DNA of 36,325 nt from a virus (Duplodnaviria > Heunggongvirae > Uroviricota > Caudoviricetes). Numbering within the stretch: the first letter of the stretch is position 1; each line of letters starts with the position of its first letter. Position numbers and translations under genes: made by a program. The DNA lies in the IMG/VR virus record IMGVR_UViG_2711768053_000014, positions 1-36,325 of that record; one strand, given 5' to 3'. Under the pieces are notes generated by a model. The model was not told the DNA's origin, searched no databases, and was given only the letters and a program-made list of their open reading frames with translations. This document shows, piece by piece, positions 841 through 35,490 of this stretch.

Positions 841-936
841 GAGCGCCCGGAGGGCTGGGGGTATTTAATCACAACCGATGCAAACCGACGATCGATATGA
901 TGCTATCGATCGTCATAAACTATACAAACTGATTAT
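841..936 (-). promoter_or_regulatory. Candidate mom-operon promoter/regulatory region with Dam-site inverted repeat
   Basis: Intergenic between the chaperone stop (937) and com; perfect 11-bp inverted repeat GACGATCGATA-(6 nt)-TATCGATCGTC at ~887..914 holding two GATC sites. Mu's mom promoter is regulated through upstream GATC methylation (established knowledge); assignment here is by position and motif only. Confidence 0.5.
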
Positions 937-1512
937 TTAATCACCGACAGTTAACGCTCTCACCTCGTCCAGTATGGACAGCCGGGAAAGCTGCTCCTTC
1001 ATTTCACGCTGGCGCTGATAAATCCCGTCATTGCGATCGAGCTGCGCCTGCGCCATTGCTACCGCCAGTTCTTCCAGTTCCGACATTGACAGTTTCACCT
1101 GTTGATTATTGGCGTCACCCCACGCAAGGGCGGTTCTTGCCGTATCGGATTTCGCCGCCATTACTACCGGATAAAGACGGGCCAGTGAGTCGGGGCCAGC
1201 ATTCCAGGGGCGGCCGTTCCATTCGAACGTGAACGGCTGCGCCTCCTGTTCTGTGCGCCACGCCTCGATTTCCATCTTTTTGGCATCTTTTGCCGCTGCG
1301 ATAAGTTCAGGCGTGACTGTAAACGGGGCGATTTCACCCCATTTGCCGCTCTGTAACTCTTCCCAGATGCGCTGGCCTGTCATTGCGGTATCATCCTGCA
1401 TGGCGGTATACGGGACGAATTCCGTTTCACCTTCAAATAACACCTCGCAGTCAACCGCACCATTTTCGAGATAATGGGCATTTCTGATGCCTTTTATCGC
1501 TCTGATTTTCAT
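937..1512 (-). CDS. Putative tail fibre assembly/chaperone protein (by position downstream of fibre gene)
   Basis: 191-aa ORF immediately downstream of the 1035-aa fibre gene; no recognisable similarity to lambda Tfa from memory, so the call rests on synteny. Confidence 0.4.
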   Translation of the reverse strand: MKIRAIKGIRNAHYLENGAVDCEVLFEGETEFVPYTAMQDDTAMTGQRIWEELQSGKWGEIAPFTVTPELIAAAKDAKKMEIEAWRTEQEAQPFTFEWNGRPWNAGPDSLARLYPVVMAAKSDTARTALAWGDANNQQVKLSMSELEELAVAMAQAQLDRNDGIYQRQREMKEQLSRLSILDEVRALTVGD

Positions 1513-1526
1513 GTCTTATTTCCCCG

Positions 1527-4500
1527 TTACTCGATACGCACAAAAAGACCAATATAGCCACGTTTTGTATCGTGATTACTGCGTGACCCCGAAAGCGCCA
1601 TATAACGACCGGGAAAGTTGTATGCACTGGCACCACCAATTGCCACTTGCGGTGTGGATACGTATGTCCCTGTATCGCTAACTGAAGCACTCATAGCCAG
1701 AGGGCCAAGACGGGAACCCGGCACAATATCACCGAGTCCCAGAGACACATCAGCACCAAAACTTTCCCCCTGATATGCCGCCATAACCGGCACACCAACT
1801 GCCGGATATTTGTAATATGAGCCTGAGCCTGCTGTCCGGGAGAGTAAGAACGCCAGCGAATCGCCGTCGTAAATGACAGGGCTTACTGTTGCATTCCAGT
1901 TGTTTCCACTCCAGCGGTAAGTCAGGCGATGAATGCTGTGTTCGCCTTCGTAATACTGGTTAAAACACAGCAACGTTTTGAATTTACGCGTTGTGTCCGA
2001 TTCATCGTTATCAAAGGGCGACCACATCACATCAATGATGCCGTTAAATTTCGTGGTGCCAGCCAGCAGCGTGGAAGAGTCCGCAATACTGACCGCATAA
2101 CGCCCCGGGGTGGCCTCTTTCAGCCATTCAGCAAAATCAGCCTGTCCGGTAAATGTCAGGGCGTCGGTGCTGGCAAATGCCTGACCGAATCCGTACATGC
2201 CGGACAGTGCCAGTCTGCCCGGCGTGCGGTCGCGGATATCGCTCTGGGGTTCCATCGTAGCAGCCGCTTTCAGTTCAAGCTCCGTGCGCATGGCTTCAGG
2301 TGTGTCCAGTGCCAGTAATGCGCGGGCTTTTTCTGACAACTGCGCCAGTAAAATCCTGCCATCTGCACTGAAATAAGGCAGTGTATTTTCTTCCGGTGTT
2401 ATCTGGCTGACAGCCGTTAACACGTCATTAAGCGGCTGTTTACCTGCCAGTGCATTAGTGACGGTTGTCGCAAAGTTCGGGTCATTGCCCAGTGCCGATG
2501 CCAGCTCGTTCAGTGTGTCCAGGGCTTCCGGTGATGAGCCAACCAGCGCGGCAAGCAGTTTGCGGACAAACTCCGCATTGGCTATTTCATTACCTGCTGC
2601 ATCATCCGGTGGTGTTGGCGTGGACGGCGTTCCGGTCAGTGCCGGGCTGTTCAGTGGCGCGCGGGTTTCAATCAGTGCCCGGAGTGAAGCCTCGTTGACT
2701 TTCAGGTTTTCCCAGCCAACCAGATAACCATCTCCGGTAGTCCAGTAGCGATTGTAATAAATATGGCCGTTAATACCGTAAAAAATAATGATTTTGGCCA
2801 CATATGCCGGATTGGGATTGGGTTGAGATTCCGGCCAGATAATTTCAACGGTACCCTTGAACAGCACGCCCTGTATTACCGCATTTGTATCTGCATAAAC
2901 GGCATAGCGTCCGGGTTTTGCCGTTTTTACCCAGCGGAGAAAATCGGCCTCTGTTTTAAACTCGGTCCTGTCGCCGCTGGAAAATACTTTCCCGAATCCA
3001 AACATGCCGGGAATCGCCAGTCGACCTTCGGTGCGGTCGTAAATATTCTCCTGTGCATCCTTCTGTGCTGCATTGCCAAGTTGTAGCGTCAGATTCGTCC
3101 AGGTGACCGGGGCGGAGATATTATCGCCACGAACGGTCATGAGAATCCGTCCGTCTTTTCCAAAAAACAGAACCAGCTTTGTTGCTGTCTGGCTTGTTTT
3201 GTCGCCCCAGCCATTATCCAGCCAGATAATTTCTGTTATTCCGGTCGTCTCTTCCGTTTGTGTGGAAAAGGTGTAATACCGTCCCGGGTGCAGGTTGTGC
3301 GCAGTTCTGGCTACAGTCGCCATATCGCTGGCAATAATTGAACGCGCTCCGGCGTCCGTCATTCCGTAACCAAATGCACCAGGCAGCGCAACACGGCCTT
3401 CCGAGCTGTCGTAAAGGTCTGTCTGAATGTCCCTTACCGCTGCGCTTTTCAGCTCAAGCTCATTGCGCATGGTTTCCACTGTGGCCTGTGCCAGCAGTGA
3501 CCGGGCTTTTTCTGACAGTGGAGACAGTGAAGCATTTCCGTCCTGATTAAAGCACAGAAGATTATCTGCCCGTTCTTCCAGATTACTGATTGCGGTTAAC
3601 ACGTCACTGAGTGGTTGTTTACCCGCCAGCGCGTTAATGACCGTCGTCGAAAAGTTCGGATCATTGCCCAGCGCAGCTGCCAGCTCGTTCAGTGTGTCCA
3701 GGGTTTCCGGTGACGAGTCAACCAGTGCGGCGAGCAGTTTGCGGACAAATGCCGCGTTCGCTGTTTCCAGACCGGCAGCATCGTCCGGTGGAGTTGGTGT
3801 GGTGGGCGTACCTGTGAACGCCGGACTGTCCAGCGGCGCTTTTGTTTTCGTCTCGTCCATGACGGTTTTAACAGCCTTTGGTGTGGCTGCCAGTTCTTCG
3901 CTGTCGTTGTCTGTATCACTACAGAGTTGCACCAGGCCTTTTTCTGTTGTGGATGCATTGCTTCCCTTCAGGTCATCAACTATCCGTTGCGCCTCGTCCC
4001 TGTGCTGTTTCGCGTTCTGTTCGCTTTTTGCTGCCGCTTCGGCGCTGGCTTTTGCCTCGCCGGTCAGCGTTGCGGCATCAGCAAGTTTATCGACCGCTTT
4101 CTGGACTATCTTATCGGCATCTTTGACCGCCTGTTCTGCCCGGGCGGCATTCTGGTTTGTTTCAGAGGCCAGCTCTTCAGCTTTCTGCACATTACCCGCA
4201 ATTTCTTCTGCATCCTGCCGTATTTCCCCTGCGAGGGTTTCTGTATCCTGGCGGGCCTGTTCAGCAGCGTCCGCGTGCTCTCCGGCTTTTTCTGCGCTTT
4301 GCTGCGCCTGTTGCGCCAGTTCCTCGAATTTCTTCAGGGCTTCCGGGCGCAGGTCAATATCGGTTGCGCCCAGAAAATCATTCAGCGAACCATCCGCTGA
4401 ATCTTCATAAACGCGGATGACACCGATTTCTGAAAGGCGCTGTGTGCTTTGTGTCAGGCGAACGCTGTACACACCCGGCAGAACGGGGAAGTCATATTCC

Positions 4501-4634
4501 CCGTTCTGTGTGGTGACATGGCTGAAAACACTTTTCAGAATCCCTGCACGGTTGTGCAGGGAGGTCAGTGTAATGGTTGCGCCGCCCAGCGGTTCTCCCG
4601 TGGGCGTTTTAATCACACCTTTAAGCTGCGGCAT
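1527..4634 (-). CDS. Side-tail-fibre-like protein (lambda Stf family), 1035 aa, with internal duplication
   Basis: N-terminus (...IRVYEDSADGSLNDFL...) and the collar block (KGLVQLCSDTDNDSEELAATPKAVKTVMDETKTKAPLDSPAFTGTP...LDTLNELAAALGNDPNFSTTVINALAGKQP) resemble lambda Stf as I recall it; the collar block occurs twice in the protein (about aa 255-345 and 630-715). Confidence 0.8.
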   Translation of the reverse strand: MPQLKGVIKTPTGEPLGGATITLTSLHNRAGILKSVFSHVTTQNGEYDFPVLPGVYSVRLTQSTQRLSEIGVIRVYEDSADGSLNDFLGATDIDLRPEALKKFEELAQQAQQSAEKAGEHADAAEQARQDTETLAGEIRQDAEEIAGNVQKAEELASETNQNAARAEQAVKDADKIVQKAVDKLADAATLTGEAKASAEAAAKSEQNAKQHRDEAQRIVDDLKGSNASTTEKGLVQLCSDTDNDSEELAATPKAVKTVMDETKTKAPLDSPAFTGTPTTPTPPDDAAGLETANAAFVRKLLAALVDSSPETLDTLNELAAALGNDPNFSTTVINALAGKQPLSDVLTAISNLEERADNLLCFNQDGNASLSPLSEKARSLLAQATVETMRNELELKSAAVRDIQTDLYDSSEGRVALPGAFGYGMTDAGARSIIASDMATVARTAHNLHPGRYYTFSTQTEETTGITEIIWLDNGWGDKTSQTATKLVLFFGKDGRILMTVRGDNISAPVTWTNLTLQLGNAAQKDAQENIYDRTEGRLAIPGMFGFGKVFSSGDRTEFKTEADFLRWVKTAKPGRYAVYADTNAVIQGVLFKGTVEIIWPESQPNPNPAYVAKIIIFYGINGHIYYNRYWTTGDGYLVGWENLKVNEASLRALIETRAPLNSPALTGTPSTPTPPDDAAGNEIANAEFVRKLLAALVGSSPEALDTLNELASALGNDPNFATTVTNALAGKQPLNDVLTAVSQITPEENTLPYFSADGRILLAQLSEKARALLALDTPEAMRTELELKAAATMEPQSDIRDRTPGRLALSGMYGFGQAFASTDALTFTGQADFAEWLKEATPGRYAVSIADSSTLLAGTTKFNGIIDVMWSPFDNDESDTTRKFKTLLCFNQYYEGEHSIHRLTYRWSGNNWNATVSPVIYDGDSLAFLLSRTAGSGSYYKYPAVGVPVMAAYQGESFGADVSLGLGDIVPGSRLGPLAMSASVSDTGTYVSTPQVAIGGASAYNFPGRYMALSGSRSNHDTKRGYIGLFVRIE
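2400..2680. repeat. Intragenic direct repeat copy A (~270 bp) within the Stf-like gene
   Basis: About 85-90% identical by eye to 3585..3860; both encode the APL(D/N)SPA(F/L)TGTP...NELA(A/S)ALGNDPNF...ALAGKQP segment; the paired plus-strand artefact ORFs 2458..2727 and 3637..4410 start with near-identical peptides. Confidence 0.7.
3585..3860. repeat. Intragenic direct repeat copy B (~270 bp) within the Stf-like gene
   Basis: See copy A (2400..2680). Confidence 0.7.
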
Positions 4635-5187
4635 CGGGACGCTCCGGCCAGTTGATGGAGTAAAAGGAGGCTTCGTCAGTAACGGTGCTTAAATCCAGTG
4701 CCTTTACCGCTTTGATATATGCCATCCACTGCGTAAGACGGGCTTTATCATCGTCGCTGATGGTGCCCAGCTCCAGCTCGGTTTTCCAGTCGGAGGTGAT
4801 GTCCTTCGCTTCATTCAGCATGCTCTGGCGTTTTTTTTCTGCCAGTCGCGAGTAATCAACAGGAACCGGCAGCACTTCGCCGTCTTTGTAATACCAGCAG
4901 GCTTCAATGCCAAAACCTTCCGGCAGTTCATCCACTTCCACAATGGTGAAGCCAGCCGGATAAAGACGGGACACGTCTTCCGCCATTGAATAAATCACGC
5001 CGCTTTCAGGGTGAATACACAATTTGTATTTCTTCGTGAATTTATCCAGTGATTCATAAAAATCCTGTCCGTCTTCACTGCGGAAATACTGAATATCCTT
5101 ACCATAAGGCATATTTTCCGGGTAATAACGCGTGACGTTTCTGAGTTCCATTATTTTCTCCTTAATTAACCTGATACGGTGCGCCAT
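4621..5187 (-). CDS. Tail fibre assembly protein (Tfa / Mu U-like)
   Basis: 188-aa ORF directly after a fibre gene, with a Tfa-like C-terminal region (...DKARLTQWMAYIKAVKALDLSTV...WPERP); true start may be the internal Met at ~5151 just after the upstream stop. Confidence 0.7.
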   Translation of the reverse strand: MAHRIRLIKEKIMELRNVTRYYPENMPYGKDIQYFRSEDGQDFYESLDKFTKKYKLCIHPESGVIYSMAEDVSRLYPAGFTIVEVDELPEGFGIEACWYYKDGEVLPVPVDYSRLAEKKRQSMLNEAKDITSDWKTELELGTISDDDKARLTQWMAYIKAVKALDLSTVTDEASFYSINWPERPDAAA

Positions 5188-5975
5188 GAACCATTGATAT
5201 AAATCTGCGCGGATTTGTAATACACACCACCGATGTTATCCGCCGAACTTCTCCCCGTATCCTGGACATAAATTCCTGACAACTGACAGCCGGAAGGCGC
5301 GCGAAACGTCCAGGTGATTTCGTTGCCACCGGGATTGTGAAACACCTCATTGGTGTACTGAAAATTACGCACAGCGCCGGAATCTGTGGTGTTGATGGTG
5401 ATATCGCTGGTGCCATCAAACAGCACATTGTTAATCCTGCGGGCCGTCTGAAGCCGGGTTGCCGTTCCGGCGTTGCCACTGATGTTGCTGATGGTGATAT
5501 CCGAAGACAGGGCCATGCCGTTGACCCTGCGGGTATTCGGTACAGCACTATTAGCTTTATTTACCGTGTCACGTAATAAAAGCGCGTCGATAATTTCACC
5601 GGCTGTGTTTTTCCCGAGAATACCGCGCACAAAAGCACTGAGCGGCGTTAATGCCATTGTGTCTTCGCCGGTAAAGTACGGGAATGTATTATTCTGACCG
5701 GTTAATCCGGCAATAGCACTGGCTGAACCACTGTTCGTAATAAACAGTTTTTTCAGCGCCGTCATAATCTGGTTGGTGGTATTTTTATCCGGTTTGATAT
5801 TTGCCTGCCGGAGAATTTCCAGCAGTTCAGACTGAATAATATTAAACCAGTCCGGCCCCGGATAAGTGGGCGGAATACCATTCCCGCCTTCGGTGAAATA
5901 AAGCGTTGTTTTGCTTAATTCAGCCGCGACAGGTGGCATTACCGGCACACCCGTCGGATTATCCACATGAAACAT
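5166..5975 (-). CDS. Tail fibre protein (short, Mu S-like position)
   Basis: 269-aa ORF between the baseplate genes and a Tfa-type chaperone; Ser/Thr/Gly/Asn-rich fibre-like composition (...DITISNISGNAGTATRLQTARRINNVLFDGTSDITINTTDSG...). Confidence 0.6.
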   Translation of the reverse strand: MFHVDNPTGVPVMPPVAAELSKTTLYFTEGGNGIPPTYPGPDWFNIIQSELLEILRQANIKPDKNTTNQIMTALKKLFITNSGSASAIAGLTGQNNTFPYFTGEDTMALTPLSAFVRGILGKNTAGEIIDALLLRDTVNKANSAVPNTRRVNGMALSSDITISNISGNAGTATRLQTARRINNVLFDGTSDITINTTDSGAVRNFQYTNEVFHNPGGNEITWTFRAPSGCQLSGIYVQDTGRSSADNIGGVYYKSAQIYINGSWRTVSG

Positions 5976-5978
5976 AAA

Positions 5979-6563
5979 CTATTCTCCGGTGTAATAATAT
6001 TCATATTCCGTGCCCGCCAGTCGGTAATGCTTCAGCAGGCATTCCAGCTCGCGGGTGCGTTCGCTGATTAATGGCGTCATGACGTCATCAATACAGGTAA
6101 ACCGTCCGGCATCTTTGTCCGGGACTTCCACTTTCAGCAGCCAGCGATACCGCGCCGGATGCAGCGGGTACATGCAGTCACGCAGGCAGTGGTGCGGCAG
6201 AACGGCCGTCACCTTAATGGTGAAGCCCAGCGCCGCCGCAGCGGCTTCAATCTGCCAGGTTGCCAGCCCACCCTTGCGGCGGTATTTCTCCACCACGGCC
6301 CGGCGGCGGGCTTCCGTTGTGGTGGCGGCAATTCCGCATTCCGGCAGCGCCAGATATTGCTCCCACTCCGGCAGCAGCTGGAGCGTGGTTTCCGGTCGCA
6401 TCTCCACATGCAGGCGCGAGGCGTCGTATTCAACGCGGGTTAAACGCTCTGCAAGCGCCCTTAAAAAACGGTTTAAATCTGCATCGTTATCACGCGGCCA
6501 TGCCTTACCCCGTGGCATGACCTGTTGCAGTGCGGTCAGCCATTCCGTCACGCTGTGAGCCAT
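5979..6563 (-). CDS. Tail/baseplate protein (Mu gp48-like)
   Basis: 194-aa ORF in a tightly packed minus-strand operon between the baseplate J-like gene and the fibre gene; Mu gp48-like by position. Confidence 0.6.
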   Translation of the reverse strand: MAHSVTEWLTALQQVMPRGKAWPRDNDADLNRFLRALAERLTRVEYDASRLHVEMRPETTLQLLPEWEQYLALPECGIAATTTEARRRAVVEKYRRKGGLATWQIEAAAAALGFTIKVTAVLPHHCLRDCMYPLHPARYRWLLKVEVPDKDAGRFTCIDDVMTPLISERTRELECLLKHYRLAGTEYEYYYTGE

Positions 6564-7624
6564 GTCACCTCCCCGATGGTGATAAGCTCATCCACATCAC
6601 TGGTGGTGTCTTCCCCGATGTTGAGGAAGTAATCCGTGATACCGGACGTCATACCGATGGCCGTGCGCAGCGAGGACACCGGCAGCATCTGACCGGGGGC
6701 CAGCGTTTTCTGTAATGCGGTCAGGTTTGCCCGGACGGCGTTCCTGTTCGCCTGGCTGTCCGGTGTCAGACGGATGGACAGATCGACTTTCTTCAGCCTG
6801 ACCTGTACCGGCCAGACCTCGATGCCGCCCGGTTTGCCCACCATCACGCCCGTGGCCGGGTGTTTGTGACAGAACAGATACTGCTCCATTGTCTTCAGGT
6901 CGTCCCGTGTGGGGATAATGTCTTCACGGTCATCATAAAGCCATGCCAGCCCGATCGTGCCGGGGCCGTGCCACGCATCCCACGCCCACGCGCGGCTGAC
7001 GCCCGGCACTTCACGCGCCCAGATGACGTAATCATGTAGTGCACCGCCCACCGGGGGATTGCGGCGCACATACAGCAGACGGTCCAGCAGCTCTGCGATG
7101 GATTCGATGTCTGCGCCACCGGTGATGCCACTTTCAGTCACCGCGCCGGTGCTGCCCGTTCCGGGTAGCGGGGACAACAGAGTGAGCACGGCACCGGCAG
7201 CAAGATTGCCCGCCACACCGGCTTCTTCAGCCTGCACGATGACGGTGACCTCGCCGTCCTGTACCTCGCCGGATGTGAGTACCTGATACACCTGATTCGT
7301 GTCGGACTGCATCCGGGTTTCTGCCGGAATGGGGGACTGACTGGTGAAGGTCACCGGCCCGCTGGCAAAGGTGGCCTGCTTGCGGATAACCCCTTCATAC
7401 GTTGCTGTTTTGATAATGGTTTCATCATCAGACATGGTGGACGGGATTATCTGGTCCTTAATCCAGCTCTGATGGTCGTATAAATCCCGGACCTGACTGC
7501 TGAATGACACGTTCAGCGCCTGCTCAATACTGACAGGCGGCAGCTTTTGCAGGCCGAGTTCATACGCAATATCTTTTTCGCCGTCGGCAATCAGTTTGCC
7601 CAGCGTGGGGATTTCATACGGCAT
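6548..7624 (-). CDS. Baseplate J-like protein (Mu gp47-like)
   Basis: ORF track 6548..7657; size, position and operon context fit a baseplate J-family protein; start trimmed to the internal Met at 7624, which reduces overlap with the upstream gene. Confidence 0.7.
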   Translation of the reverse strand: MPYEIPTLGKLIADGEKDIAYELGLQKLPPVSIEQALNVSFSSQVRDLYDHQSWIKDQIIPSTMSDDETIIKTATYEGVIRKQATFASGPVTFTSQSPIPAETRMQSDTNQVYQVLTSGEVQDGEVTVIVQAEEAGVAGNLAAGAVLTLLSPLPGTGSTGAVTESGITGGADIESIAELLDRLLYVRRNPPVGGALHDYVIWAREVPGVSRAWAWDAWHGPGTIGLAWLYDDREDIIPTRDDLKTMEQYLFCHKHPATGVMVGKPGGIEVWPVQVRLKKVDLSIRLTPDSQANRNAVRANLTALQKTLAPGQMLPVSSLRTAIGMTSGITDYFLNIGEDTTSDVDELITIGEVTWLTA

Positions 7625-8066
7625 TAATGGTGGCCTCCCATCGGCGGGTGATTTCAATTGTGAGCGTGGTTTTGTCCGGGCGGGTTAACACCACCTGAAA
7701 GGCAATACGGTCAGGGACGATGATGCTGGCCGTGACGGTGGCGTTACGGGCGTAACCGGCCCGCAGCAGCGGTTGCATGGACAGCCGCGCGTAATCTTCC
7801 ACACGCAGGCGGACATCTTCCGTCAGCTTTTCACGCTCAAGCAGCCACAGGCGGGAACCCCACGAAAAATCGCTGTACGTGTCGCCCGGCCAGCCGCGCG
7901 GGTCGCCAGAGCCGTCAGGAATGACATCATCGTCATCAGCACGGGCATCGGTGAAAAGGCAGATAAGAACCTGAGTGACCAGCCCCTCATCCAGTGAGAG
8001 GCCGTTATGGGTGACGGTGATGTCACCCCGTGAGAGCATGTTATTCCAGCGGATTCCTGTCGTCAT
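7614..8066 (-). CDS. Baseplate protein (Mu gp46-like)
   Basis: 150-aa ORF with overlapping stop/start coupling to its neighbours inside the baseplate cluster. Confidence 0.65.
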   Translation of the reverse strand: MTTGIRWNNMLSRGDITVTHNGLSLDEGLVTQVLICLFTDARADDDDVIPDGSGDPRGWPGDTYSDFSWGSRLWLLEREKLTEDVRLRVEDYARLSMQPLLRAGYARNATVTASIIVPDRIAFQVVLTRPDKTTLTIEITRRWEATINAV

Positions 8067-8599
8067 ACGGGCGGTGATGTATTCTCATTGTCGCCGTCCT
8101 TATGAATGTGTTCGATGAATGATTTACCGTTGATTCTGACATCTTCAGTAAATTCACAGGGACCGACGAATTTCATTTGTTTACCGATAATATTCAGCAA
8201 TTCGTCGGCGGTGAGATTTACCGTTTTCCCTGAAAAGTTTAATTGTTCTCCTGTGATTTCAATAATTCCGCCTTTCCTTAACGTGATATGTGATTTGCCG
8301 TCCTGGTGATACAGCCGGACGTCGCCGGTGGACAAGCCTTTAGGGCGACATCGCTTATCCTCCACCGCGATGGCAACCAGCCCGTCACGCCGTCCGCCCA
8401 CGGCCAGCACGATGGCTTCTGAACCTTCCGGCGGAACGGAAGTAAACCCGTAATTCTGGAAGCGCTCCACATCGTCATCAGTGGCATCTGCCAGCGTCTG
8501 GATTTGCAGGTTCTGTCGCTCCAGACTGTCAGACACCATGCGGACAATGGCACGGTCAACCATCAGCCGCAGACGGCGGGCAATGGCGTTTAATCCCAT
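8063..8599 (-). CDS. Baseplate assembly/spike protein V-like (Mu gp45-like)
   Basis: 178-aa ORF, position and size fit a gpV-type baseplate spike. Confidence 0.65.
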   Translation of the reverse strand: MGLNAIARRLRLMVDRAIVRMVSDSLERQNLQIQTLADATDDDVERFQNYGFTSVPPEGSEAIVLAVGGRRDGLVAIAVEDKRCRPKGLSTGDVRLYHQDGKSHITLRKGGIIEITGEQLNFSGKTVNLTADELLNIIGKQMKFVGPCEFTEDVRINGKSFIEHIHKDGDNENTSPPV

Positions 8600-15341: not shown

Positions 15342-15918
15342 GGATCACGTCGTTAATTTCAGTGTGTTCACCGCTACGCAGCGTTGCCCCGAGGCGCAGG
15401 AAGTCCGGGAGCGCGGCGAGATCAATCTCTTCATCCAGCTGAAATTCCTGCTCCCACGTCACCGCCCACATGGTGACGCCCAGCCCGTCGAGGCTGGCGG
15501 AGTAAATGTTGTCTGCCCGCACATCAGCAGCCATGCGTTCAGCCCCCATGCCCCCGGTAGAATCCGACGACAACAGGCGTTTGATCACCTTCCCGGCCAG
15601 CACTTCACAGCGCACGTCGCGGGAATACCCCCACGAATCCGTCGCCATGATGTAAGCCACCCAGGTGACCAGACCGGACAGCCCGCCGCGCGGGTTAATA
15701 TCCCGGACGCGCAGGGCAGCTACCCGGATACAGCCGGTGCGACCGGACAGATAGCGTTTCACTTCATCGGGGCTGTTGAACTGGCCGATGTGACGCTCCA
15801 CCACGTCGGCCCGGTCAGGGGTTTTCCCCTGAAGCGCTGTTTTCAGCCAGGCCACAATGCGCTCTGCGGCCGCAACGGTGCTCCCCGGTGTGCGCAGTTC
15901 AGGGCGTTGTTCTGTCAT
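15307..15918 (-). CDS. Neck/tail completion protein (Mu gp38-like)
   Basis: 203-aa ORF in the head-tail joining cluster between the head and sheath genes. Confidence 0.55.
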   Translation of the reverse strand: MTEQRPELRTPGSTVAAAERIVAWLKTALQGKTPDRADVVERHIGQFNSPDEVKRYLSGRTGCIRVAALRVRDINPRGGLSGLVTWVAYIMATDSWGYSRDVRCEVLAGKVIKRLLSSDSTGGMGAERMAADVRADNIYSASLDGLGVTMWAVTWEQEFQLDEEIDLAALPDFLRLGATLRSGEHTEINDVIHVRGDDGTETD

Positions 15919-16460
15919 GGCAGAACCTCCTTCCAGAAATGACTGATAACCTGTTGCAGCTCCTGCTGATTGGCAGAAGACAGCCCCAGAAATTCACGTT
16001 GCGGAATGTTCATCATGCGGTTATGTGCGCCGACGGTCTGCCAGACCGGATATTTCAGCGCCCGCCCGAAACACTGCGAGATAAGCCGTTTGTGGGCGCT
16101 GACCGGCACACTGCCGGAAAAGCCGTCATTCATGATGCGGGCATAATCCAGCGGTGAACCGATACGCACCACGCGGTTTTCCACGATGTACTGGATACTC
16201 TCCAGCAGATGGCCTTCACCACGCAGCAGGCTCTGGTTGCCGTGGCGGGTCTTTTTGTACCCGTCAGACCAGTCCGGCCAGCGTTCGCCACCCGGACTGG
16301 TTTTCTCATCGATGATGCGGCGGCGGGTCTGTGATTCCACCACCGCACCGATGCTTTCCAGCAGCTCTGCCTGCAATGAACCATCTGCCAGCTTTTCAAC
16401 GGCGCGGCGGATATCCTCCAGACGCTGGTCACCGCTGACCTGTACAGAAATCCCCATCAC
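15915..16460 (-). CDS. Virion morphogenesis protein (Mu gp37/G family-like)
   Basis: 181-aa ORF, ATGA-type coupling to neighbours, in the head-tail joining cluster. Confidence 0.55.
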   Translation of the reverse strand: MMGISVQVSGDQRLEDIRRAVEKLADGSLQAELLESIGAVVESQTRRRIIDEKTSPGGERWPDWSDGYKKTRHGNQSLLRGEGHLLESIQYIVENRVVRIGSPLDYARIMNDGFSGSVPVSAHKRLISQCFGRALKYPVWQTVGAHNRMMNIPQREFLGLSSANQQELQQVISHFWKEVLP

Positions 16461-17286: not shown

Positions 17287-18192
17287 TTATGCCGGGGTGG
17301 TGATGTACGGGCTGTCCACGATGTCCACATCCTTGTACCAGATGTTGGAATCGCCGCCGTTAACCAGCATGGCGTCAATAATGAGCTTCGCGTCCGCACG
17401 GTTTTTCGCCCCCACCACAAGGGTGGTCGGGCGGATGCCCAGCGGCTCACCGTTGGTGCCCTTCATGCCCCGCAGCAACTCATTGGCTTTTTTGTAGTTC
17501 TCCACCGTCAGTGCTGCACGGGAACCGACGGCGGTCTGCCAGAAGCCGAAGCCCGCATTACAGCGACCGTCCACGCCGTACAGGAACTCGTGGTTCTTGA
17601 AGGTGTGCTCGCTGTTCAGATCGTCCAGGGCTTCAAATTTAAAGGCGCGTCGCGTCTGCCAGATGATGGGTTTCAGCACCTGCGACTCATCAATCAGAAA
17701 CCACGGTTCGCCCTGGTCCGTTCCTGGTGTACCGACAACGTTGCTGTAGGTGCCGTCGCCCAGCGGGTGGTCTTCATCAAAGAAGTTCTGGCCGTCAAAG
17801 CACAGGGTGTTAAACCCGGCACACAACAGGGCGTAACACAGCTTGTCCGGGAACACAGCAGTCATACGGCCATAGCGTTCGGCGGTAATGCTGTACTGAC
17901 CAATCTGGTCATCTTCAATGTGTTCGCGTTTAACGCGGATCGAACTTTCCCAGAGTTTGTTGGTGATGGTGTAACCATAACCGTCCAGCGTTGCCAGCTG
18001 ACGCTCGCCAACCCATTCTTTGATGTCCGGTAAATCTTTCATCCAGCCGTAGGTGTTGGAGGCGGACGAACTCGGCACCTCAGAAGCAATACGATTCCAC
18101 TGCGGTTCGACACCACTCAGTCCACGGGTAAAGGCGGCGCTCAGGCAGGTGGTCAGTGCATGAAGGATTTCAGAACTGATAGTCTGTGACAT
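17287..18192 (-). CDS. T: Major head (capsid) subunit T
   Basis: 301-aa ORF following the protease/scaffold gene I; size and position match Mu major head protein T. Confidence 0.8.
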   Translation of the reverse strand: MSQTISSEILHALTTCLSAAFTRGLSGVEPQWNRIASEVPSSSASNTYGWMKDLPDIKEWVGERQLATLDGYGYTITNKLWESSIRVKREHIEDDQIGQYSITAERYGRMTAVFPDKLCYALLCAGFNTLCFDGQNFFDEDHPLGDGTYSNVVGTPGTDQGEPWFLIDESQVLKPIIWQTRRAFKFEALDDLNSEHTFKNHEFLYGVDGRCNAGFGFWQTAVGSRAALTVENYKKANELLRGMKGTNGEPLGIRPTTLVVGAKNRADAKLIIDAMLVNGGDSNIWYKDVDIVDSPYITTPA

Positions 18193-18199
18193 GTGTTAC

Positions 18200-19156
18200 T
18201 TACTCCTGTTTCGGTTTAGCGGCGAGGAACTCTTCCCCGGTAATACCCATGCTGCGACACATCGCCAGTTCGGCATCGGTCAGTGTCTGCGCGGGTTTAT
18301 CCTTGCCCTGGCTGGGCTTGTCGTTGTTCACCAGCGGCTGTGCACCTTTTGTGTACTCCGCAAACTGTTTGCGACCTTCTTCCGTGCGGCAGGTGGCAAG
18401 GAACATGTCACGGTTTGCCGGGGCCACTTTTCCGGCTTCGATGGCCGCATCCACAAGCGCTTCTGCTTCCTTCTCTTCCAGTTGCTGAAGGCGTTGTTCT
18501 GCGATTTGGGCACGGTTCAGTGCCAGATTGTGGGTTTCCACCGGCACAAACTTCGTCAGGTCAGGTGTCTGTGCGCGGTTCATCGCCACCTGCTCGCTCT
18601 CCTGAAGTTGTTTAATGGCCGCCACGGTATCGTCCACCGTGGCAGATTCAGCCAGCCCAAGCAGGCCGGTGATTTGCACAGGTACTGTCATCGGGTTTTT
18701 CTCCGTATTCAGTGCAGGAAAATCCAGGTTAGGTTTGTTGGTCAGCCCGACGCTGGACAGGCGCGTCACCACACCCTCCGCGTCATGGAAAAACGCCGGG
18801 CTGTAATAGCGGTAGCGGCGCTCACTCAGCACCCACCGGGCGGACGCGTTCCAGACAACACGGCCTTCAATGGTGCCGCCATCCGTCACCCGCAGTTCTT
18901 CCACCCAGCCATACGCCGGAGCATCTTCACCACGCGGGCCTTTAATTTCGGTGGCATGTTCAATGTCCACCGGAATTTTGATGTCGGACGAGCGGGCAAC
19001 CACCTCATGCGGATTGCGGTTAATCCACGTCCGGCCATCACGCCCGGTGAACTCACCCGCAGGAACTAGTTCAAGCCATTCCGGCAGTTGAGCGGGTGTC
19101 AGCTCAGTGATGGGTTCTGGCAGGGAAAAACACAGCGCCAGCAGTTCCGGTTGCAT
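18200..19156 (-). CDS. I: Head maturation protease/scaffold protein I
   Basis: 318-aa ORF with a coiled-coil Ala/Glu/Gln-rich C-terminal half (scaffold-like), directly upstream of the major head gene, as Mu I/Z. Confidence 0.75.
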   Translation of the reverse strand: MQPELLALCFSLPEPITELTPAQLPEWLELVPAGEFTGRDGRTWINRNPHEVVARSSDIKIPVDIEHATEIKGPRGEDAPAYGWVEELRVTDGGTIEGRVVWNASARWVLSERRYRYYSPAFFHDAEGVVTRLSSVGLTNKPNLDFPALNTEKNPMTVPVQITGLLGLAESATVDDTVAAIKQLQESEQVAMNRAQTPDLTKFVPVETHNLALNRAQIAEQRLQQLEEKEAEALVDAAIEAGKVAPANRDMFLATCRTEEGRKQFAEYTKGAQPLVNNDKPSQGKDKPAQTLTDAELAMCRSMGITGEEFLAAKPKQE

Positions 19157-19202
19157 GTCAGTCTCCGTCGTTTGGGGTTACCGACGGTCAGTATGCGGAA
19201 GG

Positions 19203-19232
19203 CAGAAAAAAAGCCGGATTTACCGGCTTCAC
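19203..19232 (-). terminator. Rho-independent terminator-like hairpin (minus strand) between F and I
   Basis: Plus strand AAAAAAAGCCGGATTTACCGGCTTCA; on the minus-strand transcript this is a GC stem (AAGCCGG/CCGGCUU) with loop UAAAU followed by U7. Coordinates ±2. Confidence 0.6.
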
Positions 19233-19369
19233 TGAAAACGGGAAGAATACCCCTTCAAAACCCCTTCAAAAACGCCACAGCGCCTTCAAAAAAGTCAGAA
19301 TGCACATTCACGCCATCAGAATAAAAAACGCGTTTCTGATGCGTTTCAGGGGGATTTGCGGCGGGAGGG

Positions 19370-20191
19370 TTACTCACTGTCAAAACGGGCCTGTTTTGTC
19401 GCCAGCTGGCGCGCCAGCGCCTGCTCACGGTTTATGCCGGGATTGTAGTTCCAGCCCGGATCAATCCCTTCCGGCACATCTTCCTCTTCGCCCGTGCGTT
19501 TGTTCACCCAGCGGACAGTTCTGATTTCCGGCGCTTCGGTATGAATGGTGCCCTGTGCCGCCAGTTGCGCATACTCACCACGGCTGACCTGACGAATGGT
19601 GCATTTGCAGCCCCAGCCGTTAGGGGCAAAATGTGTCTGCCAGAACGGGTGATCTACCGGCAGACACAGACGCGCCCATTTCACATGCTCCGCCCGGTGC
19701 TCGCGGGATGGCCCCAGCTCGTAAATCAGATACGGCATGGCCCGCTTTGTCCGTTGAATGCGTTCCCACTGGCCCGCCGCGCGGGCAGTGCGCATGTTGG
19801 TGTCAAAAATCGTGCGGAGGCGGCGGTCGCTGCCCAGTTGCACGGTGCGGGTTTCACCCGTCAGCGGATCATCCATCTCCTGTATGCCCCACCATCCGCG
19901 TTTTATCAGCAGTGGTTGCAGCGCCTCCCGGAACTCACTGAACGTCTGCCCGCTTTGCAGGGCGTCTTCCACAAGGGCTTTCACATCCGACAACAAATCC
20001 AGTTGCAGCATTTTTGCCACGGTGAAGCTGTTCCGGTGTTCTTCCCGCCACACATCCCGGTAATCAAAACCGGGGCGCAGCTTCTTCGCCTTCAGCCACG
20101 CCAGCGCCTCTTTCGGGATGAGGGTTTCACGCATGACCGGTATCTCCCAGCGCACGGGCCTTAAAGCACACCTCCGCCAGTTGCAGGGCAA
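19370..20191 (-). CDS. F: Head morphogenesis protein F (Mu F-like)
   Basis: 273-aa ORF immediately downstream of the portal gene; an alternative start at the internal Met (~20134) would reduce overlap with the portal gene. Confidence 0.7.
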   Translation of the reverse strand: MPCNWRRCALRPVRWEIPVMRETLIPKEALAWLKAKKLRPGFDYRDVWREEHRNSFTVAKMLQLDLLSDVKALVEDALQSGQTFSEFREALQPLLIKRGWWGIQEMDDPLTGETRTVQLGSDRRLRTIFDTNMRTARAAGQWERIQRTKRAMPYLIYELGPSREHRAEHVKWARLCLPVDHPFWQTHFAPNGWGCKCTIRQVSRGEYAQLAAQGTIHTEAPEIRTVRWVNKRTGEEEDVPEGIDPGWNYNPGINREQALARQLATKQARFDSE

Positions 20192-26288: not shown

Positions 26289-26885
26289 TCACCCCCGCGT
26301 GGCGGACATGATGCCCAGAGGGGTATCGATGATTTCCAGACAGGCGTCGGTCAGTTTTTCCATGCGGTTAAACCAGCCGTTCAGGTATTTACCCTGGGCG
26401 GGTTTTGACTTGATGATGTCGGCATAAAAGCGGGAACGACGGACAATGCAGCGGGCCAGCAACCAGTCCGGGGTGGACAGACTCACGGCCTTACGGGTAC
26501 GCGGGCCGATGATGCCGTCAGCATCCACATCAGCGGCTTCCTGCAAAATTCTGATGGCTTTTTTAACGCCATGCTGAACCGCTGCATCGAAAACAAACAT
26601 CGCCACGCCATCAGGCCACTGGTCACATCCGGCAGGCAGCCAGTAATCGCGCCAGTAAATCTGCGCGACCTGTTCGCGGGTTAAATCTTTGATGCGGGTA
26701 TCCGGTTTGCCGTCACCGTTGACATCGGTTTTGCCGTCAATCACACCGTCGCGGCGGTCAGAAATGCCGTATTTGGTTTCGCCGCCACGGTCAGTGGGGT
26801 CATTGACATAGACGCCTTCGATATCAGGACGCAGAATGAAATTCAGCGCATGTTCAAAGGCCGGGGAGAATTTTTGATTTTCCAT
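26289..26885 (-). CDS. Endolysin, GH108-type muramidase with PG-binding domain
   Basis: N-terminal motif ...PDIEGVYVNDPTDRGGETKYGIS... resembles the GH108 EGGY...PGGxT.YGI signature and the C-terminal ...DADGIIGPRTRKAV... resembles a peptidoglycan-binding domain (from memory); no signal peptide or SAR segment. Confidence 0.75.
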   Translation of the reverse strand: MENQKFSPAFEHALNFILRPDIEGVYVNDPTDRGGETKYGISDRRDGVIDGKTDVNGDGKPDTRIKDLTREQVAQIYWRDYWLPAGCDQWPDGVAMFVFDAAVQHGVKKAIRILQEAADVDADGIIGPRTRKAVSLSTPDWLLARCIVRRSRFYADIIKSKPAQGKYLNGWFNRMEKLTDACLEIIDTPLGIMSATRG

Positions 26886-26940: not shown

Positions 26941-26968
26941 AAAAAAAGCCGGATTTACCGGCTTCATT
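26941..26968 (-). terminator. Rho-independent terminator-like hairpin (minus strand) after the mor operon
   Basis: Plus strand AAAAAAAGCCGGATTTACCGGCTTCA, identical to the element at ~19205..19230; on the minus strand a stem-loop followed by U7, about 20 nt past the stop of the 26987..27484 ORF. Confidence 0.6.
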
Positions 26969-26986
26969 GAATATCAGGTTATTGAC

Positions 26987-27484
26987 TCAGTTAACTTTAC
27001 GGGCAGAACATGTAGTCTTCATTACTGAACGTTCAATTTTTATCTTCCAGCCATTTACTGTTTTTTCGACAGGATCATCTTCAGCTTGCTTTAAATTTTC
27101 AACTTGCATGAAATTCAGTGGGGCTGGGGTATCATCGTCCCATGATGTCGGACGAACATAATCAGGGACAACAAAAGGCTCAAAAACAGTTTCACATAAA
27201 GCAGACGTCATTTGAGCAAACTCGTCGCTATCGGGGCGAACCGGTCCTGTAACATACTGCATTTTTATGTTGATTTCGTTATCTCGCACAGACGCCTTTA
27301 AATCCTGATATACACCTAAGTTAAATCCTTTAAACTCAGCAATGGCAGCGTCACCTTTACCGTACCAGTCGGTATAGTCAACGGATGTTTTTTTCTGAAA
27401 AACATCTTTGACTTTTTGCTGGAATGTATCCGCCGCTTGTACAGTAGTAACAGTTAGTAGAAGAATAAGGGGAAGATATTTCAT
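26987..27484 (-). CDS. Secreted (signal-peptide) protein of unknown function in the position of Mu late activator C
   Basis: 165-aa ORF; N-terminus MKYLPLILLLTVTTVQA|AD is a classical Sec signal peptide with an AxA site; start overlaps the mor stop (translational coupling); followed by a terminator hairpin; no similarity to the Mor/C family. Confidence 0.6.
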   Translation of the reverse strand: MKYLPLILLLTVTTVQAADTFQQKVKDVFQKKTSVDYTDWYGKGDAAIAEFKGFNLGVYQDLKASVRDNEINIKMQYVTGPVRPDSDEFAQMTSALCETVFEPFVVPDYVRPTSWDDDTPAPLNFMQVENLKQAEDDPVEKTVNGWKIKIERSVMKTTCSARKVN

Positions 27485-27882
27485 TGTTCGTCCTTAAATA
27501 GTTGCATTTGATATTTTCCACGCTCCAGTCGGCGCATTCTTTTGATGGCCTGATATACCGTTTTGTATGTCACTTTGTAACGCTGCACCAGCTCCGCTAC
27601 GTTTTTCCCATCAAAATCACGCCAGATGCGCATGTCTCTGATAAGATTTTCCAGTATTTTCCCTTTCGGAACATATACCTGAATCCCACCGATATGATTG
27701 CAAATCGCCACTACCAGCTCAAGAGAGTGGGCAGGGTTAACTCCAAGCCTTATCAGCTCCTGTCGCAACAGAGCATTCAGCTCAGCCAGTAAAGATGGAA
27801 ATCCCGATTTTTCCTGAATATCATCAAAATATTCAAGGATACTGTCGTCCTGATAATCACCAAATAAATCCTGCTCTTTCAT
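27481..27882 (-). CDS. mor: Mor/C-family transcriptional activator (middle operon regulator-like)
   Basis: 133-aa ORF; ...DLFGDYQDD...FPSLLAELNALLRQELIRLGVNPAHSLELVVAICNHIGGIQVYVP...VTYKTVYQAIKRMRR resembles Mu Mor as I recall it; located right after gemA as in Mu. Confidence 0.8.
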   Translation of the reverse strand: MKEQDLFGDYQDDSILEYFDDIQEKSGFPSLLAELNALLRQELIRLGVNPAHSLELVVAICNHIGGIQVYVPKGKILENLIRDMRIWRDFDGKNVAELVQRYKVTYKTVYQAIKRMRRLERGKYQMQLFKDEQ

Positions 27883-32260: not shown

Positions 32261-34249
32261 TTAAATGGCTCTTTTACGTCTGTTCTGTTCCAGAATATCC
32301 AGCGAATGATTCAGATATTCATCACGATCAGTTTCATATTCATCATCGGGTTCCTGGTATTTCACCTGCACCGTGTTACCGGAAGGCCGGAAAATACCAA
32401 CAACCCTTGATTCTGGTGCTGCTGGTTCGGCTATCTGCGGCAGCAGTTCAGCAACTTCCAGCGCGTCCATTTGTTTCTGCGCCTTAATGGCTGCTTTAGT
32501 TGCAGATTTCAGTTGTTTCTGGCGGCGGCGATATTCACGGCCTGCCGCAGCATCATTAAACGCAACAGGTGCCAGACATTCCGCTTCACAGATAAACCGA
32601 CCGTCCAGGGTGTAGCAATAAACCGTGCTGTGTAACTGCTGTGGATCAAACCTGACCACAACTTTTTTCACGCCGGCATTCATTAACGCCATGTTGTAAT
32701 AAACGTTTTTTGCGCCTTTAAGGGAGCCGCCAACTTTAAGCGTAAACTCGCCTTTGCGTGAAACGTTCACCGCCTCGGCAGGCAGCAACAGCATCCGTTT
32801 TTGCTCTTCGGTTGGCTTACGCACAATCGTTCTGGCGTATTCACGTTCGAAAACATCATCAAACGAAAGTTTGCCCCCGCACATTTCTGTTTCTCGGCCT
32901 GTTCTGGCATTGAACATCGCCACACCTTCGGCAAGGGTTTTCAGAAACAGCTCTGCATCAACAGCACGGTCGCCATAGTTATCAGGTTTTGCCTGCGGAT
33001 TTGGCCCCGTATATGCGCCAGCCAGTGCCGGATGCTTATCAACGTATTCCTCAAGCCCACCAACACCGAAAGCACGTTCAACAGGTTTTGCCTGGCCCCA
33101 GCCTTTACCGGCAACAACGCTTGTCCAGTGCATTTTCGCCCCCATCAGTAAAAACAGTCCTTTTGGATCGTCCTCTTTTACCTTAAAGCGGTAGCGATTG
33201 GGCGCGCCTCCCGTCAGCCATTTATTCGCTGCGCCACGGGTGTTATCAATGGTGATGTGAAAATCCTCCGGGATACCGTAGCGAGTCACAACATCCATGA
33301 ACGAGAGGCGAATTGAATCAATGTTCTCGCTCACATCGCAGCGCCAGCCCAGAATTTTTCGGGTTTTCACATCCTGCCAGAACCATGTTTTCGGGCGGAT
33401 CACATCACCGTTAAACCAGCGTACAAAGACGTTATGCAGATAACCGTCGCCGTTGATCCACTGCATGGCGTCCAGGTGTTCCACAGTTCGCTGCTGTGCC
33501 GGTATCAGATGCATCAGTGCATGTTCACCTTCACGACAGGCAACAACCATTGCCTCGTCCAGTTGCTGAATCCGGCGAAAGGCGGTGGCACGGGAGGGAA
33601 TACTCCAGCCATGCTCGCGGGCTGCCAGTTCCAGACGCTCATAACATTTGCGGAAGGCGGGTTTTTCCGGTCGCAGATAATCTGCAATCAGAAACTGCCA
33701 GGCATCCTCGTCAAATTCACTTTTGTGAACATTGCGACGGGATGCACCACGTCCATCAACAAGCGCAGCCGCCCAGTCAGGCTTCGCAAACTTCTGTACC
33801 TGGTAATACTTGTCCCGCAAAGTGGATGCGCTGACCTGGTAATGTCCTGCAACGGTCGCAAAAGCCGTTTTCGTTGAAATCCCCTGGTTCAGCATTTCGT
33901 CTGCAGCCTGAACCGCAGGCAACCATTTTTCAGCAAGTCTGCGCTGAGAATCGCTGGCTTTATCCCATTTGCTCCACAGCACCTCACGATCATAATCATG
34001 GGCTTCCAGCGTGGGGCGGGCGATTTCAAAACGCCCCTGGCTTGTTTCAATTCCCCCTTGTTGGATCAAAAACTCAGCTCGGGCAGAGTTAGGAAGAGAA
34101 GATATATGGTATTCATAAGCAACCCCTTTAATTCCTTCTCTTCTTCTCTTGAGCCATCCTTCTCTCTGTGCCCTTTTGTGAATCCCCATTAATGAACCAG
34201 GTAAACCAGATAAACCCGCACACTCAATTGCTGATATCCACTCTCTCAT
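32261..34249 (-). CDS. A: DDE transposase A (MuA)
   Basis: 662-aa ORF; N-terminal DNA-binding domain similar to the repressor N-terminus, with the central and C-terminal regions reading as Mu A from memory; follows ner. Confidence 0.95.
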
Positions 34250-35150: not shown

Positions 35151-35299
35151 CAACCAGGAACCTAGCTAAAACACATAATTCCCCTCAAATGGCCCGGATG
35201 GTAAGATACCGAAATGGCAAAAGGTGTTTTTGATATATATCATTTGCCAAAAGCCTGGTTGTTATCGGGTTTGAAGCATTTTTGAAGCTGCAATTGAAA

Positions 35300-35490
35300 T
35301 GATGTGTGAATTAATCGCTTTTCGTATCTTTAATGAAACAAAAGCCATTTCTACCAATCTTTCGCGTTTCAAGGCTTAACGGCTAAAATCTGCTCTACAG
35401 GCTTGCAAGCCCCATCAAATCTAATCCCGTCAAATCCCGAATAATCCAATGTCCTCCCGGTTTTTTTCGTACTTCTTGTGAATCAATACA
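35300..35490 (-). repeat. Mu left-end terminal region with transposase binding sites (L1 and L2/L3-like)
   Basis: Minus-strand terminus TGTATTGATTCACAAGAAGTACGAAAA (L1) at ~35464..35490; internal sites TGTTTCATTAAAGATACGAAAAG (~35321..35345) and TGAAACGCGAAAG (~35363..35377) fit the MuA site pattern TTTCA...CGAAA; host DNA starts at ~35491 (gcagg...). Confidence 0.85.

Follow-up and report, generated by a model that had tools for sequence, protein, structure and literature searches.

The 213-bp spacer between the F and I genes of the Mu-like prophage analysed here is probably a composite element, judging from its sequence, with a homologue of phage Mu's strong gyrase site (SGS) and, adjacent to and downstream of it, an activator-dependent promoter for gene I. 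Both elements are new instances of two known kinds of element, and not a new kind. The three short direct repeats in the spacer are best explained as the putative right, DNA-wrapping arm of an SGS homologous to that of Mu.

The window, that is, the whole 36,325-bp stretch of DNA analysed, represents a Mu-like E. coli prophage in inverted orientation, its genes being carried by the minus strand. The genes to which we refer below are:

32261-34249, minus strand: transposase A gene
26289-26885, minus strand: endolysin gene
19370-20191, minus strand: F gene (Phage_Mu_F)
18200-19156, minus strand: I gene, encoding a protease/scaffold protein (Mu-like_Pro), with its ATG at 19156

The phage carries Mu-type A/B transposition genes and Mu-like ends, and the further genes identified in the window are B, GemA, the large terminase, the portal and the major head protein T. 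The left end of the prophage (attL) is located at window position 35490 and reads TGTATTGATTCACAAGAAGTACGAAAAAAACCGGGAGG..., with its first 340 nt sharing 81% identity with Mu. Window position 1 falls within a mom-like ORF, and in a complete relative mom is followed ~115 bp further on by a disrupted host gene; together these observations place the right end of the prophage ~135 bp past window position 1 and give an element length of ~35.6 kb. One IMG/VR relative consists of a 35,653-bp contig with the I gene at the corresponding position along it. Of 5,426 complete E. coli genomes, 49 carry a member of the prophage family (95-98% identity), while a phage database search yielded no close relative of the window phage, the matches being to the F-coding sequence only. 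The G gene has been relocated in this phage and is absent from the F-I position, where the spacer abuts the F stop codon.

The spacer (19157-19369) extends between the F stop codon and the I ATG, and the ORF coordinates bear out the original prediction that this 213-bp interval is non-coding; the position ~16 kb from the left end given there likewise agrees with the ~16.2 kb that separate the interval from attL (35490). The prediction had also drawn attention to three direct repeats, and a count over the window returns exactly three copies of CCTTCAAAA, all within the F-I spacer, compared to 0.45 expected by chance (0/100 dinucleotide shuffles reach three). When one mismatch is allowed, the whole window contains 16 matches, as against 9.3 expected, with no clear enrichment elsewhere. 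The start-to-start spacing of the exact copies is 11 and 20 bp, and on the minus (coding) strand CCTTCAAAA reads TTTTGAAGG. The repeats and the elements that flank them are listed here, with the A/T tract centres given relative to the dyad of the gyrase site predicted below:

19252-19260, plus strand: copy of CCTTCAAAA
19263-19271, plus strand: copy of CCTTCAAAA
19283-19291, plus strand: copy of CCTTCAAAA
19283..19293, minus strand: repeat 1, TTTTTTGAAGG (the third plus-strand copy of CCTTCAAAA), A/T tract centre at ~+17
19263..19272, minus strand: repeat 2, TTTTTGAAGG, A/T tract centre at ~+37.5
19252..19260, minus strand: repeat 3, TTTTGAAGG, A/T tract centre at ~+49
19243..19249, minus strand: fourth phased A/T-rich element, TATTCTT, centre at ~+60, matching the gyrase-motif AT maxima at +60.5/+61
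19311..19344, minus strand: imperfect hairpin with an 8-bp inverted repeat, CATCAGAA..TTCTGATG, belonging to the left arm of the predicted gyrase site

On the coding strand the repeats are followed in order by TATTCTT, CCCGTTTTC and a GC hairpin with a T7 run, with the I start codon 50 nt later. The placement of the repeats upstream of a hairpin thus holds as had been predicted, the hairpin (19230..19210) being downstream of them in the direction of transcription. The hairpin of the left arm (19311..19344; RNA fold: -10.7 kcal/mol; z: -1.97) includes the sequence CATCAGAAACGCGT, which matches the 3′ end of Mu G at 14 of 15 positions (1/1000 shuffles as good) and is possibly a relic of the 3′ end of that gene.

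The gyrase cut of Mu is annotated at 17879/17880 in its GenBank record, within the G-I spacer. [quoted passage not shown] The original prediction had proposed alignment to the Mu SGS as a check, to be answered negatively by a lack of similarity to any characterised gyrase site; such similarity is found, as local alignment of the F-I spacer with the Mu G-I spacer selects the right arm with a significant score (29; shuffles: 17.3 +/- 2.3; 0/1000 reach it). The repeat block is colinear with Mu's SGS right arm, down to a skipped rung at +28, and the cleavage core and left arm of the window site show no recognisable conservation with Mu. According to published work, the right arm of the SGS is essential, carries the T-segment and works via phased anisotropic bending. 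The predicted site in the window is located ~16.2 kb into the ~35.6-kb element (45%), flanked by F and I and ~1.6 kb away from the exact genome centre.

A 130-bp gyrase motif, the arms of which show a 10.75-bp periodicity, was described by Sutormin et al. (2019), and the authors' position weight matrix (PWM) puts the SGS top in Mu. We used an approximation of this PWM, rebuilt in symmetrised form (PPM) from 416 published Topo-Seq sites in W3110 1-200 kb and supplemented by a ridge fit to the published scores; the coordinate convention was confirmed by the G (71-81%) and C (66-79%) frequencies at the expected positions. Scores of the rebuilt PWM correlate with the authors' scores at held-out sites (r: 0.78-0.84). 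As a calibration, the Mu SGS ranks 7 of 36,588 positions in Mu with both matrices, with a predicted overhang at 17876-17879 that fits the annotated 17879/17880 if the latter denotes the bottom-strand nick. The corresponding predictions for the window are:

19243..19372, minus strand: predicted 130-bp gyrase-bound segment (motif -63..+66; PWM), reaching from the stop codon of F to where the repeat block ends
19306..19309, minus strand: predicted 4-nt staggered cleavage overhang, CTGATGGCGT/GAAT/GTGCATTC (PWM optimum)

Among 36,196 positions in the window this site ranks 6 with the PPM (z: 3.4) and 1 with the ridge fit (z: 4.5), and it scores better than the Mu site with the Topo-Seq-derived matrix. 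The predicted cut is 12 nt upstream of the first T-run, compared to 11 nt in Mu. Most of the PWM score is contributed by the right arm, with the left arm and centre positive too, and scrambling of the 51-nt block lowers the PPM score from 8.2 to 3.6 +/- 1.0 and the ridge score from 11.8 to 6.2 +/- 1.1, a cost of 4.6-5.6 bits (0/500 scrambles reach the native score). The same site ranks 1-10 in every close relative, while the equivalent site, identified with the same PWM, ranks 1-3 in the TUM9757-type locus and 1 in L025, both of which are described below. The spacing of the A/T tracts follows a common ladder in the two phages, with centres relative to the dyad as follows:

Mu site: +17.5, +38.5, +50.5, +73
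Window site: +17, +37.5, +49, +60, +71

Across six elements, A/T tracts are found at ~+17, +38, +50, +61 and +72, though the tract sequences differ. The published gyrase consensus has A/T positions at +19, +29.5, +38.5, +49.5 and +61 and the rebuilt PPM has AT maxima at +18.5, +28.5, +39.5, +50.5 and +60.5, with which the window tracts are in phase. GGGG blocks separate the A/T tracts of the window right arm, the phasing power of which ranks 11-73 among ~36,270 sequence windows.

The sensitivity and specificity of the rebuilt PWM are limited, given that the Mu SGS reaches only rank 7 and that the Sakai Sp18 site goes unflagged (rank 54-88 of 5001), though it is reported to work. Furthermore, the PWM rewards any ~11-bp phased A/T-G/C repeat, an unrelated tandem array (L019) ranking 2 in its locus with the PPM, and the fixed 18-nt distance between block and predicted cut is partly circular, since the phase of the arm drives the PWM optimum. 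Simpler scores were discarded: equal-weight matching against the strong/weak pattern in the 133-bp consensus published for gyrase favours coding DNA rich in G+C and misses the Mu SGS, and Pearson correlation to the 133-bp consensus pattern is non-discriminating, with the Mu centre (17877) only at rank 26 and the window peak at 19240. The PWM also gives good scores to unrelated 11-bp tandem arrays, which bears on a reading in which the repeats are functionless, being slippage or duplication debris from the loss of G, and the motif score is a by-product of 11-bp periodicity. The possible G relic in the spacer and the transfer of G to another site in the window phage would suit such an origin. 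We consider it highly improbable, however, as three lineages have kept the block, each at the position equivalent to that of the SGS, and as it is colinear with the experimentally essential right arm of Mu, skipped +28 rung included, and is accompanied by a left arm and centre that score positive independently of the repeats.

The reading of the repeats as part of a gyrase site is extended by their occurrence in other elements. A blastn search of E. coli showed that a true Mu-type prophage of strains TUM9757 and PEC422, with gene lengths identical to those of Mu, carries the 43-46-nt block in its G-I spacer (95-98% identity). The left half of the TUM9757-type spacer keeps the Mu cleavage-site sequence ATAAAATCA; this spacer is a natural intermediate between the window-type spacer and that of Mu, and through it the right arm of the window is linked to Mu. 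A scan of viral contigs recovered the block from close relatives of this phage, from the Mu-type prophage and from a third element, L025, with three other matches being unrelated tandem arrays. In L025 the block precedes an I-like gene of only 32% identity, with different upstream genes and without a Mor box after the block. The Sakai Sp18 prophage and L047, a relative at 57% identity, have other tract sequences on the same ladder, and the window-type block itself is absent from Sakai. A scan of species-representative genomes for the exact block gave no match, and a scan of the same genomes with the I protein gave only distant MAG matches, which lack the ladder.

Among the close relatives, 10 of the 51 block positions vary and the block shows no clear excess of conservation over its surroundings, and its near-identity across lineages exceeds what a purely shape-read signal would need. 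Such near-identity, at 90-98% in three lineages whose neighbouring genes share ~30% protein identity, together with the presence of three near-identical direct repeats on one helix face, would also be in keeping with an iteron-like array bound sequence-specifically by a protein of phage or host origin, for instance a nucleoid-associated protein or one that regulates packaging or the expression of head genes, with gyrase uninvolved. This seems decidedly unlikely to us. Mu, Sp18 and L047 keep the tract ladder with other sequences (TTTTAAA, TTTAAAAT), and preservation of the ladder while tract sequences change argues for indirect readout and not for base-specific binding. Furthermore, no candidate binding protein is evident, and recombination that exchanges a small module between Mu-like prophages resident together can account for the near-identity.

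The gyrase site that the original prediction had placed in this spacer is thus favoured by the right-arm homology to Mu, the sharing of the block with TUM9757, the phase of the motif and the top score in the window. Oram & Pato (2004) reportedly found several Mu-like prophage sites, among them that of S. Typhi CT18, to be cleaved by gyrase yet not to support Mu replication, and as such a gyrase site is not guaranteed to function as an SGS. According to a historical review from 2023 (PMC10052514), the only sites to have sustained replication of Mu are its own SGS and that of Sakai Sp18.

The second part of the composite is a predicted promoter immediately downstream of the block, the components of which, along with its second copy and its likely activator gene, are:

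19218..19233, minus strand: Mor-type activator dyad, AGTGA-AGCCGG-TAAAT, predicted -51..-36 of P_I
19206..19230, minus strand: terminator-like GC hairpin, GAAGCCGG-TAAAT-CCGGCTTT, with a T7 run, overlapping the Mor dyad
19190..19195, minus strand: predicted -10 hexamer of P_I, CATACT, placed relative to the dyad as TATCCT is in Mu Pm; no -35
19157..19182, minus strand: predicted 5′ UTR of the I transcript, with +1 near 19182 by transfer of the Mu Pm +1
26941..26968, minus strand: second copy of the Mor-box/hairpin promoter (25-mer at 26941-26965), in a 101-bp gap preceding the endolysin gene, without a repeat block
27481..27882, minus strand: gene for a Mor homologue, the only Mor/C-family activator in the window (Pfam Mor: 6.6e-30)

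The Pm promoter of Mu has been defined by the Howe laboratory as a 16-bp dyad at -51 to -36, in which a G/C-rich hexamer separates two 5-bp arms, combined with a -10 hexamer and no -35; positions tested include -57G and -54A. Setting the Mu +1 at 9224 reproduces -57G/-54A and gives the dyad AGTAA-AGCCGG-TTAAT and the -10 TATCCT. The window dyad is identical to this at 14 of 16 positions, with a gap-free alignment from the dyad through the -10, and the promoter boxes of both window copies align gap-free to ACAGTAAAGCCGGTTAATCCGGCTTTTTTTACGTCCTCAATATCCTG, just downstream of Mu mor. A 25-mer, GAAGCCGGTAAATCCGGCTTTTTTT, has exactly two copies in the window, one preceding I and the other preceding the endolysin gene (0 expected by chance). 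In the endolysin copy of the promoter the dyad is AATGA-AGCCGG-TAAAT and the -10 is CACCAT. None of the 30 positions of 19204-19233 varies across 19 relatives, compared to ~20-35% of positions in the neighbouring segments. A scan of 18900-19600 yielded no sigma-70 -35/-10 pair, as is expected of an activator-dependent promoter, and a Shine-Dalgarno sequence, GGAG, is present at 19166-19163 in the predicted 5′ UTR. Further matches to the Mor box in the window, with three mismatches, are situated in coding DNA and are unconvincing, with a possible exception near 8227.

The hairpin that overlaps the dyad has an 8-bp stem with five G-C pairs, a 5-nt loop and the T7 run (RNA fold: -12.6 kcal/mol; z: -2.9), and is the only terminator-like hairpin called. 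In L047 the dyad is kept (CAGTAAAAGCGGTTAAT) while the perfect stem and T-run are missing, which makes activator binding look like the conserved function. The hairpin described in the original prediction as a terminator is therefore real, T-run included, but on this evidence it is primarily a putative Mor-type activator box, homologous to Mu Pm and not to the C-dependent P_I, that probably terminates the upstream transcript as well. Centring of the Mor site on the hairpin loop was considered and rejected, as the published G/C-rich hexamer spacer and positions -57G and -54A place the dyad on the left stem.

The Mor homologue shares 64% identity with Mu Mor and 30% with Mu C, and is assigned to the PHROG 'late transcriptional activator'. 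No C gene was found in the window phage, its only Mor/C-family protein being the one that is 30% identical to C; orf165, which occupies the position of C, was examined as a cryptic C homologue and is unrelated to C in sequence. A Pm-type box has thus, in effect, apparently replaced the C box of Mu P_I. The I-operon promoter that had been predicted in the spacer is accordingly retained as a candidate of the Pm type, but not as one of the C-dependent P_I type.

Their position immediately upstream of the Mor box raises the question of whether the repeats are instead the upstream part of the I promoter, with phased T-tracts at ~-70 to -111 boosting P_I in the form of curved DNA, a distal UP-like element for the alpha-CTD of RNA polymerase or extra activator sites. 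Mu Pm makes use of a proximal UP subsite, rich in A/T, that immediately precedes the Mor site, and the block stands upstream of an I-like gene in every lineage in which it was found. We nevertheless regard this as quite unlikely. The endolysin copy of the promoter is without repeats, which assigns the repeats to the gyrase site and not to the promoter, and Mu Pm is insensitive to mutations upstream of -57. Furthermore, the distance between block and promoter varies, the block adjoining the Mor box in the window, being far from a C-type P_I in TUM9757 and having no box in L025, and the colinear homology is to Mu's experimentally functional SGS right arm.

Block and hairpin together could also be read as a small RNA of ~90 nt that ends at an intrinsic terminator. 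The segment is closed by a genuine terminator-like hairpin, and its only Rfam match is a weak, full-length one to sroD (19205-19293, minus strand; 20.7 bits; E: 0.17). This score is far under the gathering threshold of 50 bits and the match was rejected as evidence of an sRNA; no promoter-like site was found upstream, and the two parts occur separately, the block without hairpin in TUM9757 and L025 and the hairpin without block upstream of the endolysin gene. An sRNA here is extremely improbable.

For the composite of gyrase site and promoter, we suggest the following mechanism. The gyrase-site homologue would span the coding (minus) strand from the F stop codon to ~19243, where host DNA gyrase would bind a segment of ~130 bp and cleave it with a 4-nt stagger at ~19306-19309. 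[quoted passage not shown] By analogy with Mu, this near-central site would drive processive supercoiling and thereby assist the two prophage ends in synapsing for replicative transposition. Downstream, the Mor-type dyad (19233-19218) would act in place of a -35, with CATACT as the -10 and the I operon starting near 19182. The single Mor homologue would activate both P_I and the identical box upstream of the endolysin gene, and the GC hairpin and T-run over the box would also end the upstream transcript.

A more speculative extension, which we deem unlikely, is that the TTTTGAAGG block constitutes a portable 'gyrase-wrapping module' exchanged among at least three transposable phage lineages, with gyrase and promoter occupancy coupling transposition to head-gene transcription. 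The right arm ends ~10 bp from the Mor box, so that wrapped gyrase and RNA polymerase/Mor would share adjoining or overlapping DNA. If true, this would amount to a direct switch, or a coupling, between replicative transposition with gyrase bound and head-gene transcription, in which the promoter would be either occupied or stimulated through negative supercoiling of the local DNA.

The debate over which properties render a gyrase site "strong" continues to turn on the phasing and deformability of the right arm. The window family would contribute a natural variant whose ladder (TTTTGAAGG) is more regular and GC-clamped and whose cleavage core is different, while the TUM9757-type prophage, in which a window-type arm is joined to the Mu cleavage core, would represent a natural domain swap. 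The arm-swap series of Mu, TUM9757-type, window-type and L025 sites could help to dissect gyrase-site strength, its members being ready-made substrates to test which features confer processive supercoiling. Furthermore, in this Mu relative the lysis and head genes appear to be under the direct control of Mor-type boxes, with no C protein, and its cascade would then be a simpler one of two tiers, as compared to three in Mu.

The predicted promoter can be compared with two promoters of Mu. With Pm it shares a nearly identical CAGT(A/G)AAGCCGGT(T/A)AATCCGGCTTTTTTT, the 16-bp dyad with a G/C-rich hexamer spacer, the -10 at equal distance and the lack of a -35, with the dyad arms differing at 2/16 positions. 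The window boxes, however, precede the structural and lysis operons (I and endolysin), whereas Mu Pm precedes the middle operon encoding C. With Mu P_I it shares the genomic position, the downstream gene and a homologous -10 and initial transcribed region (CCGCATACTGAC in the window, CCGCAAACTGAC in Mu), but a C-binding region (CATAACCCC...) is found in Mu where the window, which encodes no C, has a Mor-type box.

The Sakai Sp18 site of E. coli O157:H7 resembles the predicted gyrase site in being central, intergenic and upstream of an I homologue in a Mu-like E. coli prophage, and in the phased A/T tracts of its right arm (ATTTTCTAA, TATTTAA and CTTTAAAAT). The spacer sequence is unlike that of the window, however, and the G gene is kept in Sp18. 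From the Mu SGS the predicted site differs in its repeat unit (TTTTGAAGG, compared to TTTTAAA(C) in Mu), its core (GAAT/GTGC, compared to AATC/AGCC), its contact with the F stop codon as a consequence of the absence of G, the distance from the right arm to the activator box (~10 bp, compared to ~45 bp or more) and its genome position (45%, compared to 49%). Both sites are nevertheless directly upstream of gene I near the genome centre of phages with Mu-type A/B genes, both have T-run units at ~21 and 12 bp followed by CCCGTTTT in their right arms, with A/T tracts at ~+17, +38 and +50 from the cleavage dyad, and both score highly with the gyrase-motif PWM.

The central repeat block of the F-I spacer, which is read as the right arm in a strong gyrase site (SGS), is also found in other elements. 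In the Mu-type prophage of Escherichia coli TUM9757 and PEC422 (L006/L007, 5968-6168), the gene lengths of which are exactly those of Mu, the Mu cleavage-site half (ATAAAATCA) is joined to a right arm of the window type, which points to recombination of two phage lineages inside the SGS. The block also occurs in a compact Mu-like element (IMGVR_UViG_2547132272_000021; 900-6900), which carries, in order, a gp27-like gene, a gene for a 285-aa Mor-domain protein, orf143, the repeat block, and I-like, T-like and minor-tail/tape-measure-like genes. Between mor and I in this interval there is neither a terminase, a portal nor an F gene, and the element could be a reduced prophage or satellite-like. 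A Mu-style ladder of three TTTTAAAC copies, spaced at ~22 and 11 bp, is present in IMGVR_UViG_3300036825_000156 (2340-2500), whose I protein is 57% identical to that of the window. This element has the Mor dyad and lacks the GC hairpin and T-run, making it a useful outgroup for distinguishing activator binding from termination.

Unrelated arrays of four to five head-to-tail TTTTGAAGG copies, with 1-2 nt spacers, were observed in three AT-rich viral IMG/VR contigs (L017, L019 and L024), one of them labelled GVMAG. The gyrase-motif score, derived from an approximate matrix rebuilt from published Topo-Seq cleavage sites, is also high for the L019 array.

Three further features of the window all lie on the minus strand:
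15915-16460, minus strand: G-like virion morphogenesis gene (Phage_tail_S), downstream of gp36 and not between F and I
26941-26986, minus strand: second Mor-box/hairpin/T7 element, identical to the F-I copy, upstream of the endolysin gene (26289-26885)
26987-27484, minus strand: 165-aa ORF overlapping the mor stop codon, where Mu has C

Within the F-I spacer, CATCAGAAACGCGT (19328-19341, minus strand) matches the 3′ end of Mu G at 14/15 positions, a level reached by 1/1000 shuffles, and may be the remnant of a G gene that has been lost. The 165-aa ORF has no Pfam or PHROG matches and is not similar to C; the phage seems to be devoid of any C-type late activator. The second Mor-box element, with CACCAT as its -10-like sequence, presumably serves simultaneously as lysis-operon promoter and early-operon terminator. 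A weak Mor-box-like sequence, TTTTCAGGGAAAACGGTAAATC (~8185-8231, minus strand), lies within a baseplate gene (8063-8599), with TGAATATTAT downstream at the distance seen in the Mu middle promoter Pm. By analogy with Mu P_P, this may represent a third Mor-type promoter, for the tail genes.

A GATC cluster (CGATCGATAGCATCATATCGATCG) is located in the spacer upstream of com (spacer 841-936, minus strand; com 628-840), resembling the Dam/OxyR-controlled region of Mu Pmom, although the phage has no gene for a C protein that could act as its activator. At the left end, two CTTCAAA copies 11 bp apart (GCTTCAAAAATGCTTCAAACCC; minus strand, 35270-35287, or 204-221 when the prophage is numbered from attL) are oriented opposite to the central repeats, and Mu retains this pair at the same positions (CTTCAAAAAACGTTCAAAACC).
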